This document shows, piece after piece, positions 3 to 9,977 of a stretch of 15,988 bases of DNA (its first letter is position 1; each line of letters opens with the position of its first letter). This DNA is from Candidatus Hodarchaeum mangrovi (GTDB lineage: Archaea > Asgardarchaeota > Heimdallarchaeia > Hodarchaeales > Hodarchaeaceae): positions 1-15,988 of the forward strand of contig JAEOUE010000295.1 in NCBI GenBank assembly GCA_016839515.1. Reading direction: 5' to 3'. Below the pieces are notes generated by a model. That model worked only from the letters and a program-made list of their open reading frames with translations, was not told where the DNA came from and did no database searches. The translations under genes were made by a program, and so were the position numbers.

Positions 3-1664
3 GTAGTTACAGATAATTTTCCTGAAATATACAACGGAACAGGCGTTAAATCAGTAACAGTTAGATTGACTGTACAAGATGCTCAAGGCCCTTCTAGAAA
101 TGCTCATTTATTGACCCTTATTGAAAGCACTGATTTGTATGATGTATATTATGGAATTATAACAACTGCTACTGATCCTATTGCTTTTCCAAGAGACTAT
201 TTCTCATTTAACCAAACAATTAAATATACAATCAATGTTACAGATAATTTAGGTAACTGGCAAATTAAAGACGGGTTATCACTCCTTAATAAAGATTCAG
301 AAGGGCCTTTTATTAATCGAACAGAAATACTTTATTCCCCAGAGATGGATGGTTTATTAAGTATAGTCATTAATGCTACTGATCAATGGTCAGGAGTGAA
401 AAATGCCTCTATCCGAGTTTATTACCCATTAAATAATCAATGGTCTTCTACTTATTTAATGACAAAATCTGATCTTTTTGTAGGTTATGGATCGCAATAT
501 TACTTCATTAATGAAAGTTTCAATGTGGGTGAAATAATCACATATGAAATTATATTATTTGATAATGGGGGAAATTCTTATCGTGAAATTGCTGATATTG
601 GTGTTGAGGATAAATCAGGACCTCAATTATTATCTGGATCTAAGATTAAATACAGTGAAAATGGACTTGGAGAGTTTTCCCTTATAATTAACACTGGGGA
701 CAATGGTTCAGAAATTACTAGAGCTATTCTTCATTATTCCTATACGATTGGTACTTCTATATTAAGTAGGTCTATCAATCTCACAGAATTGGTTTCCGGA
801 GGTGGGTCAGGGGCCAATATCGAAAATTACAAGTTTCGGAAGACTTTTTCCCAGAAATTCAACATCCCACTTGATTTTACTAGATCAGGATATATAAAAT
901 TTAGTCTAGAACTCTTTGATACCGAGGGTAATTCTCGTTTATATTCGCATGTAGATCTAGAGGACAAAGAGATATTTGATGATAGTTTTACTCAGTTATT
1001 GGATTCTGTTGCGATTGATCTTCTTGGGAATCCAATTTTCTTATTTTTCCTATTCATTTTTGTTGTATCTCTTGCTTATGTTACAATTAAACGGTTACGA
1101 ACTATAAGTGGTTTTGACAAGGAAAAGGTATTAGCAGAGATGACTCGAATTAGTGATAATGAGGTTTGGGAAGAAAATGATAAAATCTCTATTGGATTAT
1201 ATGCTAATTTCTTTGACCAAATAAGAGGTCCAGTTCCAATTATTTGGCACCCCGAAAAAGTAGGGGTATCGGAAAGAGTCCGATTTGCATTAGCTGACCG
1301 ATCTTTCTCAACTTTAGGCTTTGTCTCAAAATATACTGAAACTAAGGATGCAACATTCAAATTTACTTATACAGGAGAAAATTGCACAGTATTTGGATTT
1401 GCTTTTGCTATTGTAAAAGCAGAAGCTCGTGGTGGCCAAGAGAATTTATCAATCTGTTTTATGATTCGTCCTCCCTATGGAAATCTTGAAAACCTTAATA
1501 AATTCCGAGGTGAACTGATAGAACACCTTGAAAAAATCTCTCTGTTGATAAAAAGAGATGAAGATATCAAAATAATTCAAAGAGAAATGCAGAAGACTCG
1601 TGAATTCTTTACTAGAGCTATGATCACCTTTCGAAAGAAATATGGGAGGGAATTTTTAGAGTGA
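3..1664 (+). CDS. 5'-truncated single-pass membrane protein: Ig-like repeat ectodomain, TM helix and cytoplasmic FLCN/SMCR8-like longin (uDENN) domain (receptor A)
   Basis: The frame is open from base 3 (VVTDNFPEIYNGTGVKSVTVRL), upstream of the ORF-track TTG at 66, so the gene starts before the window. Ig-repeat motifs: DSEGP, EDKSGP, TDQWSGV, TDNLGN, FDNGGN, FDTEGN. TM PIFLFFLFIFVVSLAYVTI (~1032-1088) is followed by KRLR. Cytoplasmic motifs: FFDQIRGPVPIIWHP (1209-1253) and EARGG (1422-1436). Confidence 0.8.
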   Translation, partial: VVTDNFPEIYNGTGVKSVTVRLTVQDAQGPSRNAHLLTLIESTDLYDVYYGIITTATDPIAFPRDYFSFNQTIKYTINVTDNLGNWQIKDGLSLLNKDSEGPFINRTEILYSPEMDGLLSIVINATDQWSGVKNASIRVYYPLNNQWSSTYLMTKSDLFVGYGSQYYFINESFNVGEIITYEIILFDNGGNSYREIADIGVEDKSGPQLLSGSKIKYSENGLGEFSLIINTGDNGSEITRAILHYSYTIGTSILSRSINLTELVSGGGSGANIENYKFRKTFSQKFNIPLDFTRSGYIKFSLELFDTEGNSRLYSHVDLEDKEIFDDSFTQLLDSVAIDLLGNPIFLFFLFIFVVSLAYVTIKRLRTISGFDKEKVLAEMTRISDNEVWEENDKISIGLYANFFDQIRGPVPIIWHPEKVGVSERVRFALADRSFSTLGFVSKYTETKDATFKFTYTGENCTVFGFAFAIVKAEARGGQENLSICFMIRPPYGNLENLNKFRGELIEHLEKISLLIKRDEDIKIIQREMQKTREFFTRAMITFRKKYGREFLE

Positions 1665-4600
1665 CGAATATTGGTAGAGGAATAATGACGTATAGATTTA
1701 ATGACATGAATATGGTGTTGCTTATACTTATTTTCATTTCTATTGTTCCAACTCTTAATTTACAATCAAGGACGACGCATACAATCGATTATTATCTCAA
1801 TTCTGAAAACGAATCTATCGTTGTTGATCGTTTGATGAGATCTAATTCCTCAGTTCCTGAATCTTTAGAATATGGACATTTGAAACCAATTGGATTTATC
1901 CCGACATCTCATCAATATTTTACTTCATCTAATCAGTCTACAATTTTTGAGTCCTCCAATTTTAGTGATGATGATCTTATTATTCCTCAAACCAAGATAA
2001 TGGCTCAATTTGATGTAGTTATTGACGAGATTTATCCTAAAGCTATTGAAATTAATTCATCTCAAACAGAGTATCGATTGAATTTCTCAATAGTAGATGG
2101 CCAAGGACTTGATTCAAGCATTATTATAAATTTAACCTTAAGGCGCTCAGATAATCCCCTAGAAAATTATTTAATTACTACTTGGTACAATTTCTGGTAC
2201 AAGGGAGAACCCAGTTTTGATTATTCCTTGTTTTTCACTCTTAACAATTCGATTATTTCATCTCTCTCTTTCGCTTTATATTATTTCGAAATTCACACTT
2301 TAGTTTTAACTGAAGAAAGTGTTTCATCAATTAATTTACCAGTAAAAGATCTCCAAGTTTCTATTTTAAGCTTGGTTCCAATAGAGTTTAATAACAAATT
2401 TGATTATAACCAGACATTTGAGATCCAAATTGAGGTTAAGGAGTTTAATGGGATTTCATATAATCCTGTAACTTTTCTACCAAGGCTTCTTGATTCTAAT
2501 TCAAGATTGATAAATCCCAATGTTACAATTTTATCTTCGACAGACCAAACAAGGGTGGAATTGTACTTTTTCTCCTTTATTACAAATTCTTCGGCTGAAG
2601 GGACATATACTTTTAATACTACACTTCTTCCTGATGATGCTCGCCAATTTGAAGAAGCAAATCATCAATTGTCAGTCGTTGTAACTTCAAATGATGGGAT
2701 TCAAGCATTTAATTTGGAACTAATACAAGCCAAAAGTACTGTACTATTAGTTCGATTAAAGAAAATTTATATTGAATCAGAATCTTTTGATTGGGATATA
2801 TTAACTAATAATGGAAAGGAACATAAAATTTTCAGGATAAATATTAATTCCTCATTTTTAGTGACCTATGAAATATACGAACAAGAATCAGGAATTATAG
2901 ATGACACTGCTGGAGATATAATTAGTTTTCAAGATCCGAATAAACCTAAAGATCCATTTGCTATTCTTCAGAATGTATCATCAGCAGATGGATCTGATTC
3001 AATAGATCTTACTTCCAACCGAATTTCTCTTCCTGAAGGGTATCCTTTGTTTTTATATGTAAGAGGTCACCGCACTTCACAAGAAGATGAATTATCCAAT
3101 ATTACGATCTATTGGGATTCAATTGATTATAATCTTAACTATTATGATGATAAAGGTGAATCAGGATCAAAGGGATTAGGGTTAGATATTGGAGCGACTT
3201 GGGCTTTAAATTTATCACTTATTTATGTTTCTGACTCATCTCCTGCATATAGTTCGTATATCCAATATAGATATCCTAGTGAAAGTCCTACTTGGGTTGA
3301 CTTGATTGATGGGATAGGGAATGACGAATTAGATGGTCAATTTTCACTAAATAGAACAGAAAATAATCCTATTGTTCTTTTATTGGAAATTCGAGTTGTT
3401 AATGGATCGTTAAGAAGTGTAAGAGAAACATATTTTGTTGATGCATCTTATAATACTGATTTATTTTCATTGGTTGTGACTTGGACTTATTTGAAGATAG
3501 ACCTCTCCTCTACAGAGGAAGATGGTCGATTAGGTATAGGTAAATCTGCTAACATAAACATTACAGTTAAATGGGCACATAATGAATCTTTACCCTTTAG
3601 TGGATATATAAGTGCAAGAGACTGGAAAAATTCTTTTTCCTTAAAACAAATAGTAAATGGATTTGGTATTTGGATTGGTGTTACTAATAATAATCCAGGG
3701 TTATATCAGTACCGAATCGATACAATAGTAGATGACCCATTATTTGGGGTTACCAAATTTTTTAATATATCCAACGGTGAGGATGTATCTATTAGTCTTA
3801 TTTGGGATTCTATCGAGTTTACATTTTCTAATACCTATAATAGTTCTTTAGATCCCTCCTTACAGATATGGGAAGCCTCTCTAGAGTATACTTGGAGTTT
3901 TTTTGCCAATATTAATACTAATGCTACTTTATATATTTATGGTTTTCATACTTATGATAATACTCCATTCCAAGGAGTTGCTGAATTAGCTTCAACTTCT
4001 CCTGATGGAGATATTATTGTTCTTTATTTTAATTCTAAGGGAATAGCAATTTGGACGGGTGATTATACAGAATTTAATATACCTATTGAGTTTTTCATAA
4101 ATTCAATAATTAATTCAGCCGAAAATGATTGGGAAATATACGAACCAGGAAATCCCCATTTTGTAGAAATCGTTTGGGATAGACTGGTGGTTACATTATC
4201 TGCAAATCGGGCGTATTCTCATGGTACATGGGCTGATATTTACATTAGCTATTCTTATGCTATAAGTCCTAAATCTGTAAATCCTTCAGACGTAACATAT
4301 GATTTTACCTTATATAATGGAACACTGACAAATGTTTCTCTAACTCATTTTCGTGACTTTAGTTTAAGCCCTATAGAGAGAACTTATTATCTAACAAATT
4401 TCTTTGAGGCAACTACAGGACTGTTAGGTGCAGATATTCAATATCGATGGACAGGATATGAACCAAGGCTAGGGAATCTAACTATTTATTGGATTGATGA
4501 TCGTCAATCACGAATTATTGACCGTTATATTCGAGATTTAGGAAATGGAACTATTCTCATTATAATTCATCTCACTGATAATTCAGAAGATTGGATTGGA

Positions 4601-6211
4601 ACTGGTATTCAATCCGTTTATTTACGTGATGAAAGAGAAAATGTCCTCGACCAATTTCCCACCCCAGCAGAAATAACTGAATTTTCTCCTGGAATATATC
4701 AATGTATTTTTCGGTATATTTTCAATCAATCTGATCAATCTAATGGGTTTAGATTTTCATTTAATGAAACTTTAAGATTTTCTTTAAATATAACAGAAAA
4801 TGAAATCCCTAGTTTTCCTGAAGACTTGGGTAAATCTCGTACTTATCTATCACGAGTTTTTACTGTTCAAGCCAAGTATGATTTCATTCTTCCCAAATTC
4901 ATTGACCAAGGTGGGATGATTATTAATATTACTTATCTTACAAATGGAACTGATGGGTATATTCTTGTAAAGACAATGGTTCAAGATGAATTTTGGTCTG
5001 GATTGGGAGATAATTCCGTCATGTTATTAATTACTACCTTAGATGATGATTTAGTTTTTGAAGGAGTTATGAATCCAGCACAATTAATTCAACCGAACTT
5101 AAGGAGGTCTATCCTTAAATTCCAAACACTTGTGTATTTGGATGTTCTCAAGACTTATATTTTTACGGTCGTCGCTACCGATATTTCAGGTAATAAGAAT
5201 AGCTATCAGATTGAATTAGTAGTTGAAGATCGTGTGGCTCCCCGTGTAATTGAATTTAATAGTGAAAAAACGGACGATCGGCAATTACGTGTGAACGTCA
5301 CACTTGAGGAAAATGGTCTTGGAATTGACTTTATTCGTATCAGGATTCGTGGATATAGTATTTGGTACGATTTACTACCCGTTGGAGGAAGCGGGGCTGA
5401 CGAAACAGCCCAACGTTTTATCTATTCAGGCTTAATTCCTCTTATTCTTGATCTCAATAATATTATCGGATTTAAAGTGGAATTCGATGTCTGGACCATG
5501 GATCGTTTAGGCAATCAAAAAGAATTTTTGCTAGAAAATTACCAATTTCTGCTTGAAACGATATTCCTTGAGCCTTTTGTGTTAGGTTCTCTTGTATTTC
5601 TATTAGTAATCGGCATTATAATTGGGATCAGAGTAACTTCTCGCCATGAAGGCTATGATATGCAACGAATCTTCAAGGAAGGTGAACAAATCTCAAGAGA
5701 GGATATTTTGATTCAGATGGATGAATTTGCTTTGGGAGTTACAATTAATTTCTTTGATCAAATTCAAGGTCCTGTTCCTGTTATCTGGGAGCCTCCACTT
5801 CTAGAGGATCAACAACAAGTCATGCTTGATCTTTCGGACAAATCATTCTCAACTCTTGAGTTTGTAGGCACTGATGAATATGAACGAAGTGGAACATTTG
5901 ATTTCTCAACGGGAAGTTATGAATGTACGGCTCTTGGTTATTCATTTGCAATTGAAAACCCAGAGGCTAGAGGAGGCAAAGAAAATCTCACGATCGTTTT
6001 ATTACTTCGTAGAGAATGGGGAGAAAACCTACTAGTATTTCAAGACGAGCTAGTTGAAAAACTAAGACAAATCCGTATTTTGGTTGAAAATAGGAAACCA
6101 GCGTCTGAAATCGAGAGGACATCGCGCGAATTACGTGAAATGGTTTCTCGGTTAATGATTGCATTTAATAATTTGTATTTAAAACAAGAAAAAAGTAATG
6201 AAAAAAGATAG
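1661..6211 (+). CDS. Large single-pass surface protein: signal peptide, beta-sandwich repeats, TM helix and cytoplasmic FLCN/SMCR8-like longin (uDENN) domain (receptor B)
   Basis: 1516-aa ORF. The GTG start overlaps the upstream stop (GTGA); an alternative ATG at 1685 has GAGG just upstream. N-terminal hydrophobic stretch MVLLILIFISIV and many N-x-S/T sequons. TM PFVLGSLVFLLVIGIIIGI (~5573-5629), then FFDQIQGPVPVIWEP (from 5750) and EARGG (5963-5977). The cytoplasmic domain aligns without gaps to receptor A from the juxtamembrane linker through the EARGG region. Confidence 0.82.
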   Translation: MTNIGRGIMTYRFNDMNMVLLILIFISIVPTLNLQSRTTHTIDYYLNSENESIVVDRLMRSNSSVPESLEYGHLKPIGFIPTSHQYFTSSNQSTIFESSNFSDDDLIIPQTKIMAQFDVVIDEIYPKAIEINSSQTEYRLNFSIVDGQGLDSSIIINLTLRRSDNPLENYLITTWYNFWYKGEPSFDYSLFFTLNNSIISSLSFALYYFEIHTLVLTEESVSSINLPVKDLQVSILSLVPIEFNNKFDYNQTFEIQIEVKEFNGISYNPVTFLPRLLDSNSRLINPNVTILSSTDQTRVELYFFSFITNSSAEGTYTFNTTLLPDDARQFEEANHQLSVVVTSNDGIQAFNLELIQAKSTVLLVRLKKIYIESESFDWDILTNNGKEHKIFRININSSFLVTYEIYEQESGIIDDTAGDIISFQDPNKPKDPFAILQNVSSADGSDSIDLTSNRISLPEGYPLFLYVRGHRTSQEDELSNITIYWDSIDYNLNYYDDKGESGSKGLGLDIGATWALNLSLIYVSDSSPAYSSYIQYRYPSESPTWVDLIDGIGNDELDGQFSLNRTENNPIVLLLEIRVVNGSLRSVRETYFVDASYNTDLFSLVVTWTYLKIDLSSTEEDGRLGIGKSANINITVKWAHNESLPFSGYISARDWKNSFSLKQIVNGFGIWIGVTNNNPGLYQYRIDTIVDDPLFGVTKFFNISNGEDVSISLIWDSIEFTFSNTYNSSLDPSLQIWEASLEYTWSFFANINTNATLYIYGFHTYDNTPFQGVAELASTSPDGDIIVLYFNSKGIAIWTGDYTEFNIPIEFFINSIINSAENDWEIYEPGNPHFVEIVWDRLVVTLSANRAYSHGTWADIYISYSYAISPKSVNPSDVTYDFTLYNGTLTNVSLTHFRDFSLSPIERTYYLTNFFEATTGLLGADIQYRWTGYEPRLGNLTIYWIDDRQSRIIDRYIRDLGNGTILIIIHLTDNSEDWIGTGIQSVYLRDERENVLDQFPTPAEITEFSPGIYQCIFRYIFNQSDQSNGFRFSFNETLRFSLNITENEIPSFPEDLGKSRTYLSRVFTVQAKYDFILPKFIDQGGMIINITYLTNGTDGYILVKTMVQDEFWSGLGDNSVMLLITTLDDDLVFEGVMNPAQLIQPNLRRSILKFQTLVYLDVLKTYIFTVVATDISGNKNSYQIELVVEDRVAPRVIEFNSEKTDDRQLRVNVTLEENGLGIDFIRIRIRGYSIWYDLLPVGGSGADETAQRFIYSGLIPLILDLNNIIGFKVEFDVWTMDRLGNQKEFLLENYQFLLETIFLEPFVLGSLVFLLVIGIIIGIRVTSRHEGYDMQRIFKEGEQISREDILIQMDEFALGVTINFFDQIQGPVPVIWEPPLLEDQQQVMLDLSDKSFSTLEFVGTDEYERSGTFDFSTGSYECTALGYSFAIENPEARGGKENLTIVLLLRREWGENLLVFQDELVEKLRQIRILVENRKPASEIERTSRELREMVSRLMIAFNNLYLKQEKSNEKR
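3101..4500 (+). repeat. Protein-level tandem beta-sandwich repeats in receptor B, delimited by [IV]-x-W-[DT]-like motifs
   Basis: ITIYWDSI (W at 3113), LVVTWTYL (3482), ISLIWDSI (3803), VEIVWDRL (4175), LTIYWIDD (4490). Spacings are 123, 107, 124 and 105 aa. Confidence 0.6.
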
Positions 6212-6224
6212 AGGTTGAAGAAAA

Positions 6225-9176
6225 ATGAAAAAATATGTAAGTAAAATGACCAAGATATTGTTAATTCTTTTTATTTTACAATATGCCTTAATTTATGATT
6301 TATTTCCAGATTTAAGTAAGTCTTCCTCCTCTATTTTTGCAGATCCTCTTAGATCACAAGGATTTCCTGTTTACGAGTCTAGTTCTTCTTGTTCTGACTT
6401 TCCTGATGTGATTGAAATTGATACAACAAAATCTCTTCAACAGACTACTTATGATATCTTTAATCTTACAGGAGTAAAAAATCCATCTCTAGTTCAATTT
6501 ACTGAAAACATTTGGACTGATGTCTTAGGTACTGATAGTTTAGCTCTTCAAAATAGCGAGATTTTCCAAACTGGACTGATAGTAACGAATTCATCAGTTG
6601 GAAGTCAATTAGAGGAGGAAGTCAATAATTCATTATTTGTAAGAATTGGAAATACTGGTTATGGGTTACCTGTTCCTGAGTCAGGATTCAATCCTGATTT
6701 AAATGAGAACGAAGGTTGGAGTATTTCTTCAGGTCTCTCTGCTGGTTGGAAAATACCTTTCACAATTAGTAGCGAATATGAAGTGGTTAATATAAGTTTT
6801 AATTGGCGTTTTGACGCTATAGACGGAGCTTTTGATTATGATCGTTACGAATATTCCCCAGGAGTCTTTCTCGATGAGAATCCAGATTTTCAGGAGGTAA
6901 GAGCACGTATTTCCCATATCAATCCAGTAAATTCGTTCTGGTTGGAAAATGATCGATCTCCTTCTAATCCTAATGGCACAATTTATTATCGTCGTGGGCC
7001 TGTTGTAGATGGAGATGAAGTGTGGTATCAATTTAATTACTTATTTCAGGTGTCTCCTGATGATTATACATTAGAGCTAGGGGCTTATCTTAATACGAGA
7101 GAGTTTGAACTTGAATATTTCGATGTTTGGTTTGATGAAATCTATATTCAAGGGATAGATAATCTCACTGATAATCTAGCTCCTGTACCAAAGGAGTCGG
7201 GATTGAATAGAACAGCAGATATTACTCAATATGAATTTTTTGCTACTTTTAGAGAAGGATTATGGGAAACACCAGTAAAGAATGTCACAGTTTTTTACAA
7301 CACATCATCTGGTCTGAATACTACCGCCTATAATTCGACTTTAAGTCTTGTTCAGACCTCCTATATAGATAATGCAGGTTATAATAACTCCTATTGGAAT
7401 TTTTCAACTATTTTTCAATTCAATGATTCTATTAGTTATTATTATCTTACATACGATTATCAAGGAAATAATTATGTAAGTCAGAATTATTACTCGGTTA
7501 TTAATGATACAGTTGCTCCAAAGATTACAAGCTCACTTAGTATTACAAATCCCTCATTTATTCGGCAATTAGGGAATGGAAGTTCATTAATCTGTGTCAC
7601 AGTCTATGATTGGGGAAATAATACTGAAGAGGTTAAACTCTGGTATCGGATTGGCACAGGAGACCTTCAGTCGCAGTTATTCCTATTTAATGGTACTCAT
7701 TATATTACAAAAGTCACCTTCGGATTTCTCCAAACAATCTATTTTAATATAACTTTGAAAGATGGTGCTGGTAATTCTAACACCTATTCCGGGTACTCCA
7801 CGAAGAACACTATTGATTCCATCGCACCCACTATAATTTCTAATAGCTTAGTGATATATCCCAGCAAAATTACAGAGAACAAAAACCATGTAAATATATC
7901 TGCTTTTGATCCGTTTGGAGAAATAAGAAGAGTGTTTGTCGAATTTTGGGATCTTCAGGGAGTTCTAAAATTCAATGTAACATTAACTTCCCGTGGAGTA
8001 TTAAATCAGTATTTCTTAAGTCAACCATTAGATTTACCCTATAATCAGTCGTATATTGCTCGTGCTGTAGTTCGTGATCAAAGTGGCTTGAATGCTACTG
8101 CAAATATCACCTATACAGCATTGGATAGCGTGGTACCCCAGTTAGATATTCAAGAAAGTGAATATTTCGAACCTGGAAAGCTAAAGGTGTTCCTTATATC
8201 AAGTGATACTGGTAGTGGCTTAAAATCTTTAGAATATGCTATTTACACACCTACTGGTTGGTCTTCAAGTAAAAGCATTGAATTAACAGGAGCTCGTTAT
8301 TCATTTACCATTCATTCGGAGTTTATAGGGAATGAACGAATCGAGATTCGAATTAGTGCTATTGATAATGCAGGTAATGAAAAAATACTTACGAAAGTTT
8401 ATACAACCAGTTTATTCTTTTTGACCCCCTTTGGATTATTGTTTACTGATGGTTTCATAACCTTTGTGTTTGTTTTTGGCTTTACCATGGTTAAAATTAT
8501 TCAAGCCCGACGAGTTCGTGTTGTACGCCGTAAACGGTTTGATGTAGCCCTCAGTCGGAGTGAACGCTTAGCCTATCTCGGAGAAGAAGCTATCTTTGGA
8601 TTTATTGCTGCTTATGGTCAGAGAGAAGGGAGTTCTAGTGTTTTACTTTGGGAACCCCGTTTAATAGGTGGTTTCTATCAATATCTGAAGGAACTTGTAG
8701 AGAAAGCACACTCACGAGTTGATTTTATCATGCGAATGAAACCAAAGGAAATGGTATCGTATATTGATTTTAATATTGAGGATGTAGCTTGTACTGCTAT
8801 TCTTTTTGCCTATCCTGCTCCTACGTTACCACAACAATGGTTATCAACAATTAGTTTAGACCAAGTGCCTTCTGGACCTGGACAGGGGATTTTACTTATA
8901 ATGTTACTAATGAGAGAACAATGGAACACTGTATCTCAAAGTTTTCAAGAGGAAATTACTGAAGGAGTTCTAGATGTTAAAAATCGGATTCTTGCAGGAG
9001 AAACTAAAGAATCAATACTTGAACAAGCTAGAAACTTTCGTAGATTTATTTCGGAGACCATTGAAGTCCTTGACGAGATAGAAGTTGAATCAGAGGATTT
9101 TGCTGATTCGATTATGGATGGTTTTGAGAATACGTTATTAGAGCAGGATTCGGAGAAGAAAGAAGATAGAAGATGA
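6225..9176 (+). CDS. Single-pass surface protein: signal peptide, CBM-like jelly-roll, Ig-like repeats, TM helix, divergent longin-like domain and acidic tail (receptor C)
   Basis: 983-aa ORF with GAGGT upstream of the ATG and a signal-like N-terminus MKKYVSKMTKILLILFILQYALI. Repeat motifs: DNLAP, DTVAP, DSIAP, DSVVP and DYQGN, DGAGN, DQSGL, DNAGN. TM at ~8412-8500 is followed by RRVRVVRRKR. The tail shares WEP, DF...CTA and LLMREQW with receptor B (WEP, DF...CTA, LLLRREW). Confidence 0.75.
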   Translation: MKKYVSKMTKILLILFILQYALIYDLFPDLSKSSSSIFADPLRSQGFPVYESSSSCSDFPDVIEIDTTKSLQQTTYDIFNLTGVKNPSLVQFTENIWTDVLGTDSLALQNSEIFQTGLIVTNSSVGSQLEEEVNNSLFVRIGNTGYGLPVPESGFNPDLNENEGWSISSGLSAGWKIPFTISSEYEVVNISFNWRFDAIDGAFDYDRYEYSPGVFLDENPDFQEVRARISHINPVNSFWLENDRSPSNPNGTIYYRRGPVVDGDEVWYQFNYLFQVSPDDYTLELGAYLNTREFELEYFDVWFDEIYIQGIDNLTDNLAPVPKESGLNRTADITQYEFFATFREGLWETPVKNVTVFYNTSSGLNTTAYNSTLSLVQTSYIDNAGYNNSYWNFSTIFQFNDSISYYYLTYDYQGNNYVSQNYYSVINDTVAPKITSSLSITNPSFIRQLGNGSSLICVTVYDWGNNTEEVKLWYRIGTGDLQSQLFLFNGTHYITKVTFGFLQTIYFNITLKDGAGNSNTYSGYSTKNTIDSIAPTIISNSLVIYPSKITENKNHVNISAFDPFGEIRRVFVEFWDLQGVLKFNVTLTSRGVLNQYFLSQPLDLPYNQSYIARAVVRDQSGLNATANITYTALDSVVPQLDIQESEYFEPGKLKVFLISSDTGSGLKSLEYAIYTPTGWSSSKSIELTGARYSFTIHSEFIGNERIEIRISAIDNAGNEKILTKVYTTSLFFLTPFGLLFTDGFITFVFVFGFTMVKIIQARRVRVVRRKRFDVALSRSERLAYLGEEAIFGFIAAYGQREGSSSVLLWEPRLIGGFYQYLKELVEKAHSRVDFIMRMKPKEMVSYIDFNIEDVACTAILFAYPAPTLPQQWLSTISLDQVPSGPGQGILLIMLLMREQWNTVSQSFQEEITEGVLDVKNRILAGETKESILEQARNFRRFISETIEVLDEIEVESEDFADSIMDGFENTLLEQDSEKKEDRR

Positions 9177-9533: not shown

Positions 9534-9977
9534 CTACATAATGTCTAAATGGATACGTTGCGCTGTTCCTCGTGTTCCTTTGCGTGAACAGGTGACACTA
9601 AAAAGTGGAATATTGAAATCCACGGCTAATAAAGTAGCATCGTCAAGATTTTTCGCTACAAGAATGTCCAGTATCGCTCCATCGGTATGACGAAATATTC
9701 TTAAATATACATCCTCAATTTGATAAGACCCTGTCTGATCCCATCCCTTTTCTACGAGTAGTAAAGTTGGCCACAATTCTCCTTTTTTAAACCATTCCTT
9801 ACGCTTTTCTACTGGAGTTTTTATATCTTTATCGGCAAGATTGGGAAAGAAATAGCGTTTATCATCCTCAATGGTATCTTCTAGCATTCTTATATGGGGA
9901 TTTTGTCGCGCTATCCAACCAAAAGTTCTAAACTGCAAGATAATCCAGTCCGTAATTCTACATTCAAGTTTAGGCAA
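9534..9977 (-). CDS. Hypothetical soluble protein
   Basis: 147-aa ORF with a TTG start and protein-like composition that fills the gap between neighbours. The frame stays open upstream to 10076 with no in-frame ATG, so the start is uncertain. No family recognised. Confidence 0.65.
   Translation of the reverse strand: MPKLECRITDWIILQFRTFGWIARQNPHIRMLEDTIEDDKRYFFPNLADKDIKTPVEKRKEWFKKGELWPTLLLVEKGWDQTGSYQIEDVYLRIFRHTDGAILDILVAKNLDDATLLAVDFNIPLFSVTCSRKGTRGTAQRIHLDIM

Follow-up and report, generated by a model that had tools for sequence, protein, structure and literature searches.

Among the longin-containing GTPase-activating proteins (GAPs) of eukaryotes, FLCN, NPRL2, SMCR8 and C9orf72 have in common a Gly-Pro (GP) motif where the beta1-beta2 loop ends or strand 2 begins, which is missing in FNIP2 and NPRL3 as well as in longins that are not GAPs, such as those of adaptins, TRAPP and DENND (PMC12290439). 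Catalysis is attributed to an arginine finger: Arg164 of FLCN is the catalytic finger within the RagC pocket (PMC9473554), and Arg147 of SMCR8, located in the betaL4-betaL5 loop of the longin domain, corresponds to it (10.1101/2020.04.16.045708). According to the latter source C9orf72 alone and the SMCR8 longin alone are inactive, both longin subunits being needed, and the yeast protein Lst7 consists of a longin only. Here we describe three tandem genes, A, B and C, encoding putative receptors with longin-like cytoplasmic tails, from a stretch of 15,988 nucleotides of the archaeon Candidatus Hodarchaeum mangrovi (contig JAEOUE010000295.1); this whole stretch is called the window in the following.

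Archaeal relatives of these GAPs have been proposed before. Proteins of Heimdall archaea whose annotation reads 'Folliculin/SMCR8 longin domain-containing' have the GP motif and the arginine finger in the same arrangement, and common ancestry with the eukaryotic complexes, as well as GAP activity, is considered possible for these longins (PMC12290439, section 2.6). NPRL2-like longins fused to signalling domains are also known from Asgard genomes (10.1101/2020.10.19.343400). Dimers of longin or roadblock domains act mainly as guanine nucleotide exchange factors (GEFs) or as platforms and occasionally as GAPs, and Asgard GTPases and their regulators are seldom found in operons (PMC10933270). The native Arf GAPs of Asgard archaea are explicitly called unidentified in PMC11914678. 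The word 'transmembrane' does not occur in PMC12290439, and in the literature searched no membrane-anchored folliculin-like longin is described in archaea. The receptor architecture, the conserved cluster of A, B, C and a small open reading frame (ORF) called D, and the pseudo-catalytic paralog presented below seem not to have been described in the literature searched.

Judged by its sequence, the tail domain of receptors A and B carries both signatures of a catalytic longin, namely GP where predicted strand 2 begins and an arginine in the loop between predicted strands 4 and 5. Receptor A, in frame +3 of the window, reads ...FAFAIVKAEARGGQENLSICF..., where EARGG is encoded by GAA GCT CGT GGT GGC (1422-1436), and receptor B, in the frame of the ORF 1661-6211, reads ...YSFAIENPEARGGKENLTIVL..., where EARGG is encoded by GAG GCT AGA GGA GGC (5963-5977). 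The arginine codons, 1428-1430 and 5969-5971, lie where an earlier note on this DNA, made from the letters alone, had placed them, and the residue numbers given there for the eukaryotic counterparts (FLCN R164, SMCR8 R147) agree with the published ones.

The tails of A and B are identical in 64 of 167 aligned residues (38.3%), with the uninterrupted identical runs NFFDQI (6 residues), GPVP (4), SFSTL (5) and EARGG (5); when the identity positions were shuffled, at least three runs of at least five identities were obtained in 2.4% of the shuffles. EARGG had been singled out in the earlier note as identical despite divergence elsewhere. It is indeed a conserved island, but one among four identical blocks. 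In the 12 orthologues of A and B (seven loci and the window) the arginine codon is either CGT or AGA and the neighbouring codons vary synonymously, therefore conservation acts on the protein and does not result from recent gene conversion. Conservation of the arginine among orthologues, on which the earlier note had made its reading depend, extends to all five A and all seven B orthologues, each of which keeps the GP motif as well, and to 154 of 162 tails of the whole family.

This family was collected with HMMER, using tail B as query against 1.84 billion cluster representatives, and gave 152 proteins at E <=1e-3, 115 of them at E <=1e-10. The listed HMMER hits together with close hits and with A, B and C of the window make up a set of 179 stored proteins, 163 of which cover most of the tail. 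After removal of sixteen hits that were partial and of the duplicate of B from the database, 162 tails (A, B and C of the window and 159 stored hits) were aligned with MAFFT. About 36 of these 162 rows are close B orthologues, so that the rows are not independent of each other.

The loop motif of the family is P-x-A-R-G-G-x-E-N, centred on the arginine. The preceding alanine is found in 140/162 tails and the next two glycines in 144/162 and 149/162, and the Glu-Asn that follows ARGG is conserved nearly as well as the arginine itself (155/162 and 151/162). The glutamate of EARGG is variable (E in 69/162, Q in 31/162). Upstream, within the FFDQxxGPxP motif, the glycine of GP is present in all 162 tails, its proline in 152 and the second proline in 161; after full-length realignment of a subset of 40 members both the arginine and the glycine of GP were invariant. 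A second arginine, located in the last predicted helix (LREM; Arg148 of tail B, window 6134-6136, + strand), is shared by 160 of the 162 tails, including that of C, and this residue and the Glu-Asn after ARGG could belong to a structural network that surrounds the loop.

In all 163 hits that cover most of the tail the domain, which measures about 165 residues, is C-terminal, with a median of 2 and a maximum of 22 residues beyond it, in proteins of 166 to 5809 amino acids (aa). Named members belong to metagenome-assembled genomes (MAGs) of Heimdallarchaeota, Hodarchaeales or Kariarchaeaceae or have the phylum-level label Promethearchaeota, the exceptions in labelling being one Thor and one Hermod MAG. 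All of them are called 'hypothetical protein' except for two whose names derive from the ectodomain (LamG-like; Ig-like repeat). Among B orthologues the tails are 76-79% identical and the ectodomains 36-39%, and among C orthologues the corresponding values are 59-61% and 36-42%; the rate of evolution of the ectodomains is about twice that of the tails.

A transmembrane (TM)-like segment at most 70 aa upstream of the tail is found in 144 of the 158 testable members, and the domain begins a median of 18 residues past this segment. A, B and C of the window each have one hydrophobic segment, then a basic stretch and then a tail of about 170-210 aa, and B and C start with signal-like hydrophobic segments. 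N-glycosylation sequons number 25-32 per 1000 aa in the ectodomains, whereas a tail has a total of 0-2. By the positive-inside rule, A, B and C are thus predicted to be type I membrane proteins with a cytoplasmic tail. The ectodomains of relatives contain Ig-like (Big_13), Laminin_G_3, DUF2341, DUF7743 and PKD modules, and those of A, B and C in the window matched no Pfam family. Next to the membrane the ectodomains of the three proteins have a module in common that is several hundred residues long (approximately 3-1034, 4570-5575 and 7560-8450; in A and B it includes the motif G-G-S-G-A), and their distal parts differ. The fourteen members without a TM segment before the tail (14/158; 232-588 aa) are apparently soluble, one of them, P0174, having TPR repeats. 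Six of these fourteen lack the arginine and eight keep it, so that soluble proteins make up most of the Arg-less variants that do not belong to the C clade. When short soluble relatives were sought with a profile, fragments of the same family and nothing else were returned.

With the domain standing so close behind the TM segment, at a median distance of 18 residues, and with glycines surrounding the arginine, it could be asked whether a basic loop, kept near the membrane by a linker of about 30 residues, binds an anionic ligand directly, be it the head group of a lipid, a phosphate or a nucleotide, and serves in membrane apposition or sensing instead of acting on a GTPase. We regard such a role as improbable: the tails of B and C are strongly acidic (net charge -9 to -14), which argues against general membrane binding, eight of the fourteen soluble members have the arginine, and neither Pfam nor NCBIfam detected a P-loop-like or known lipid-binding signature. 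The charge pattern, with A near neutral (-2 to +3), recurs in all orthologues examined; a search for charge complementarity among the A, B and C tails gave no clear pattern.

The tail of receptor C is homologous to the A/B type (153 columns, hhalign probability 97%, E 1e-10) and is degenerate at both signatures. It reads GQxEG where A and B have GP, 13 residues are inserted ahead of the loop, the C-terminus is prolonged by an acidic extension, and in the loop itself, VP-x-G-x-GQG, a glycine takes the place of the arginine. Of 38 C-type proteins none has the conserved arginine and none of the 37 readable ones has GP; in seven of the 38 an arginine is present elsewhere within the 12 residues taken as the loop, in columns other than the conserved one. 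Because the C tails form one clade (15/15 rows, support 100), the loss of arginine and GP is single and old, and the degenerate tail has been retained under selection. The occurrence of subunits with Arg and GP beside a related subunit without both would mirror the pairs FLCN-FNIP and NPRL2-NPRL3. The missing motifs of C had not been noticed in the earlier note.

We read the tails as a membrane-tethered GAP module of the longin type, a reading that is plausible though still somewhat short of probable, with its fold, pairing, GTPase binding and catalysis predicted from the features given above. Two tails would pair as a longin dimer with A or B as the catalytic subunit and C as candidate non-catalytic partner, in the way FNIP2 serves FLCN and NPRL3 serves NPRL2. 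The dimer would dock a membrane-bound small GTPase, which might be Arf-related, Rag-like or Rab-like, and the arginine of the loop would enter the nucleotide pocket and speed GTP hydrolysis. The fast-evolving ectodomain, with Ig-like, LamG and DUF2341 modules in relatives, could couple the GAP to external contacts.

Several results weigh against this reading, and they are given here and in the next paragraphs together with those that favour it. The Pfam family Folliculin (PF11704) is the sole family that recurs in the cytoplasmic domain, with matches in 5 of 50 and 7 of 40 members (12/90). All twelve matches stay under the gathering score (best 20.3 versus 23.3 bits, E 5.2e-4), and the other 78 of the 90 members gave no PF11704 match. 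The four matches for which coordinates are available start 12-18 residues before the arginine and extend through the next strand and helix; by gapless extrapolation (three scripted, P0143 counted by hand) the arginine falls at profile position about 61, a register that holds among the archaeal matches. Pfam families of NPRL2 were not hit at E up to 1 among the 90 members. When the PDB was searched by sequence, tail B, four family profiles and the two best PF11704-scoring members found no chain of FLCN, SMCR8, NPRL2 or another longin; hits to designed helical bundles, reverse gyrase, complement C3d and dynein were discarded as chance hits. Likewise, a published Foldseek search of 52 Asgard proteomes with C9orf72-SMCR8-WDR41 gave two candidates, which are judged to be without Arf-interacting regions (PMC11914678). 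Furthermore, no DENN domain follows the tail, as the protein ends 0-22 residues beyond it, but DENN is not universal in the longin GAP family because Lst7 consists of a longin only.

These findings could mean that the tail is a lineage-specific fold other than a longin and that its likeness to the motifs of FLCN and SMCR8 is coincidental, as might be expected from a domain that has no significant sequence match among the solved longin proteins and matches Pfam only below threshold. We consider this hardly likely. PF11704 is matched by 12 of 90 members, always along one and the same stretch and in one register, two independent motifs follow each other in the right order with 67 residues between them versus 79 in SMCR8, and Heimdall proteins annotated in UniProt as 'Folliculin/SMCR8 longin' have been published with both motifs (PMC12290439). 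A crude hydrophobic periodicity of strand-strand-helix-strand-strand-loop(ARGG)-strand-helix-helix also fits the longin order (beta-beta-alpha-beta-beta-beta-alpha-alpha), which is weak evidence.

The GAP-type longin reading meets further difficulties when it comes to catalysis. Pfam found no small GTPase in the 9 ORFs of the window or in 16 flanking ORFs of seven related loci, and NCBIfam found none in seven window sequences and P0113. The arginine is present in both A and B, as opposed to one catalytic subunit per eukaryotic complex. The conserved block is longer than ARG, including GG-x-EN, and with the second arginine in 160/162 tails a structural role of the loop fits equally well. Loss of the arginine and loss of the GP proline coincide in the family with a Fisher p of 2.5e-7 if relatedness is ignored, but on the tree the co-loss comes down to three changes of the arginine state and 2-3 independent contrasts (p about 0.5) and is not significant.

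An alternative is a longin or roadblock platform that binds a small GTPase or another cytoplasmic partner without catalysis, as an adaptor, a scaffold or in a GEF-like manner, and whose arginine would be structural or part of a binding surface. Such dimers are usually GEFs or platforms (PMC10933270), the GG-x-EN block and the last-helix arginine are typical of a structural network, the arginine is kept by A and B alike, and no GTPase gene is linked to the cluster in the window or flanking ORFs searched. We nevertheless find a platform of this kind rather unlikely, since GP is near-invariant in the family and yet absent in non-GAP longins (PMC12290439), and since the Arg-less paralog C is also without GP. 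Moreover, the arginine lies in the hydrophilic P-x-A-R-G-G loop with predicted strands 4 and 5 on either side, and its flanking proline and Gly-Gly are easier to reconcile with an exposed finger than with a residue that is buried. The interpretation of EARGG as a GAP loop, which the earlier note had put forward, is partly supported, namely by the conservation of the arginine, its predicted position in the loop, the co-occurrence of GP and the PF11704 matches, and is weakened by the sub-threshold scores of the latter, the empty PDB searches and the lack of a nearby GTPase gene.

A more far-reaching proposal, which we put forward as doubtful, is that A, B and C, and perhaps D, form one hetero-oligomeric surface receptor with a folliculin-type longin dimer inside, in which the catalytic tail of A or B would join the pseudo-catalytic tail of C. 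Engagement of the ectodomains would switch GAP activity on a membrane-bound Arf-like or Rag-like GTPase, and the receptor would be a membrane-anchored forerunner of the lysosomal FLCN-FNIP, GATOR1 and C9orf72-SMCR8 complexes, which are GAPs in nutrient sensing. Were this the case, it would represent a prokaryotic receptor-GAP, and the division into catalytic and non-catalytic subunits would already be pre-eukaryotic.

The features of the cluster are collected in Table 1. The DNA of the window is GC-poor (about 33%) and belongs to a Heimdall-group Asgard archaeon; the nearest database proteins come from MAGs of Hodarchaeales, Heimdallarchaeota or Promethearchaeota. The left 9.5 kb consist of the three tandem paralogous genes on one strand, and the right half contains genes which Pfam assigns to class I lysyl-tRNA synthetase, a nucleotidyl-transferase and RadA. 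Neither tRNA genes nor Rfam families were detected in the window. A defence-system reading was dropped as PADLOC gave no hits, and a scan with bacterial promoter and terminator models was uninformative for archaeal DNA.

Table 1. Features of the receptor cluster (positions in the window) and family members without a TM segment
Feature	Position	Strand	Remark
Receptor A, C-terminal 553 aa	3..1664	+	gene truncated at the 5' end of the window
A transmembrane segment (single), then basic juxtamembrane KRLR	1035..1088	+	hydropathy
A cytoplasmic tail domain, 169 aa	1155..1661	+	folliculin/SMCR8-like by motifs
A Gly-Pro of the FFDQxxGPxP motif	1227..1232	+	
A EARGG loop	1422..1436	+	Arg codon CGT at 1428-1430
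Receptor B, 1516 aa	1661..6211	+	counted from GTG 1661
B transmembrane segment (single)	5576..5629	+	hydropathy
B cytoplasmic tail domain, 172 aa	5693..6208	+	
B Gly-Pro of the FFDQxxGPxP motif	5768..5773	+	
B EARGG loop	5963..5977	+	Arg codon AGA at 5969-5971
Receptor C, 983 aa	6225..9176	+	third paralog of the cluster
C transmembrane segment, then very basic stretch	8451..8501	+	7 K/R per 15 residues
C homologous tail domain without GP motif and conserved Arg	8547..9173	+	hhalign
C degenerate loop VPSGPGQG	8865..8888	+	Gly aligned to the Arg column of A/B
Small conserved ORF D, 78 aa	9270..9506	+	directly 3' of C
Members without TM segment: P0060, P0077, P0078, P0101, P0115, P0122, P0127, P0133, P0152, P0162, P0163, P0174, P0177, P0178			outside the window

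Compared by BLASTP, A and B align over 577 columns with 26% identity (E 6e-40). Orthologues of the truncated receptor A have 1956-3495 aa or are longer. The start of B is ambiguous: the longest ORF begins at GTG 1661 with a 4-base overlap with the stop codon of A, and the database copy (1501 aa) begins at ATG 1706, directly before the signal-like segment.

Orthologues with DNA were available from seven loci, L001-L007. The gene order is A-B-C in L002, L005 and L006, B-C in L003 and L004, which are both cut upstream, and A-B in L007, which is cut downstream. L001 (CP070695.1, 6635-13216), part of a complete chromosome, has B-C and no A; its stored record has the C tail partly masked by a run of X. 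In L001 sugar-metabolism genes occupy the upstream region where A would be expected, and the downstream genes are different as well. C adjoins B in all readable loci, and consecutive locus tags indicate the same in five further genomes. ORF D stands 3' of C in 5/5 readable loci and is annotated beside C in four genomes, so that it is possibly the fourth gene of the cluster. Its invariant C12, C15, H42 and H50 suggest that it may be a small zinc-binding protein. No Pfam or PDB match was found for D, and a relationship to the tail domain was ruled out (hhalign probability 0.2%). An ORF of 147 aa (9534-9977, - strand) has counterparts at the same position in L003-L006 with 57-71% identity; it gave no match in Pfam, NCBIfam or PADLOC, and its exact sequence is absent from the protein collection.

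According to PMC11914678 the many small GTPases of Asgard archaea still lack identified native GAPs and GEFs, and the cluster offers concrete, testable candidates. Archaeal forerunners of the lysosomal longin GAPs are so far a proposal (PMC12290439). The idea that the catalytic loop predates eukaryotes, raised in the earlier note, was thus already in print for Heimdall-group longins; the same two motifs are conserved here as well. The cluster is tractable, with well-delimited tails of about 170 aa, a single arginine to mutate and a natural Arg-less control, C, directly adjacent, and the built-in membrane anchor indicates where the reaction would occur. If the tails are active, the catalytic pocket of GP and arginine would predate eukaryotes, as would the principle that a catalytic longin pairs with a non-catalytic one, and small-GTPase switching in Asgard archaea would be wired directly to cell-surface receptors. 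If they are inactive, they would caution against deducing GAP function from GP and Arg motifs.

Among the closest known systems are the Heimdall longins of PMC12290439, which, as described there, belong to the same lineage, have both motifs and led to the same proposal of a possible GAP ancestral to the eukaryotic longin GAPs; that paper describes neither a receptor architecture, nor the A-B-C-D cluster, nor a degenerate paralog. In the Asgard NPRL2-like longin fusions the partner is a two-component domain (10.1101/2020.10.19.343400), while here it is an extracellular/transmembrane receptor-like region. NPRL2-NPRL3 of GATOR1, the GAP for RagA/B, provides the same combination of a catalytic longin with GP and arginine and a longin without both.

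The FLCN (Lst7)-FNIP1/2 complex, a GAP for RagC/D, resembles the archaeal tails in having GP before strand 2 and Arg-Gly before the last strand within about 160 aa. The complex acts at a membrane, and its catalytic subunit pairs with a relative without arginine and GP (PMC12290439; PMC9473554); C would be the corresponding neighbour here. The sub-threshold PF11704 matches are centred on the Arg loop, and Lst7 is longin-only as are the archaeal tails. Unlike FLCN, the archaeal domain forms the tail of a giant type I glycoprotein and has in this way a covalent membrane anchor, it has no DENN domain, and two Arg-bearing paralogs, A and B, occur per cluster. There is furthermore no Rag, Ragulator or mTOR context, and the similarity stays under every curated threshold.

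The SMCR8-C9orf72(-WDR41) complex, a GAP for Arf and some Rab proteins, likewise has its arginine finger, R147, in the betaL4-betaL5 loop and requires a longin dimer (10.1101/2020.04.16.045708). In SMCR8 the GP motif is at 68-69 and the distance from G68 to R147 is 79 residues, versus 67 in the archaeal tails. C9orf72 keeps the GP motif and a WD motif, whereas paralog C has neither, and SMCR8, a soluble protein, depends on WDR41 and PQLC2 for its recruitment, whereas the archaeal proteins come with a built-in membrane anchor. In this last respect they resemble the plexins, animal receptors that cross the membrane once, have a large ectodomain and contain in their cytoplasmic part a GAP domain of their own that is regulated by clustering. 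The GAP fold of plexins is RasGAP-like and not a longin, and the likeness, which involves no homology, is an analogy of how such a receptor would work.

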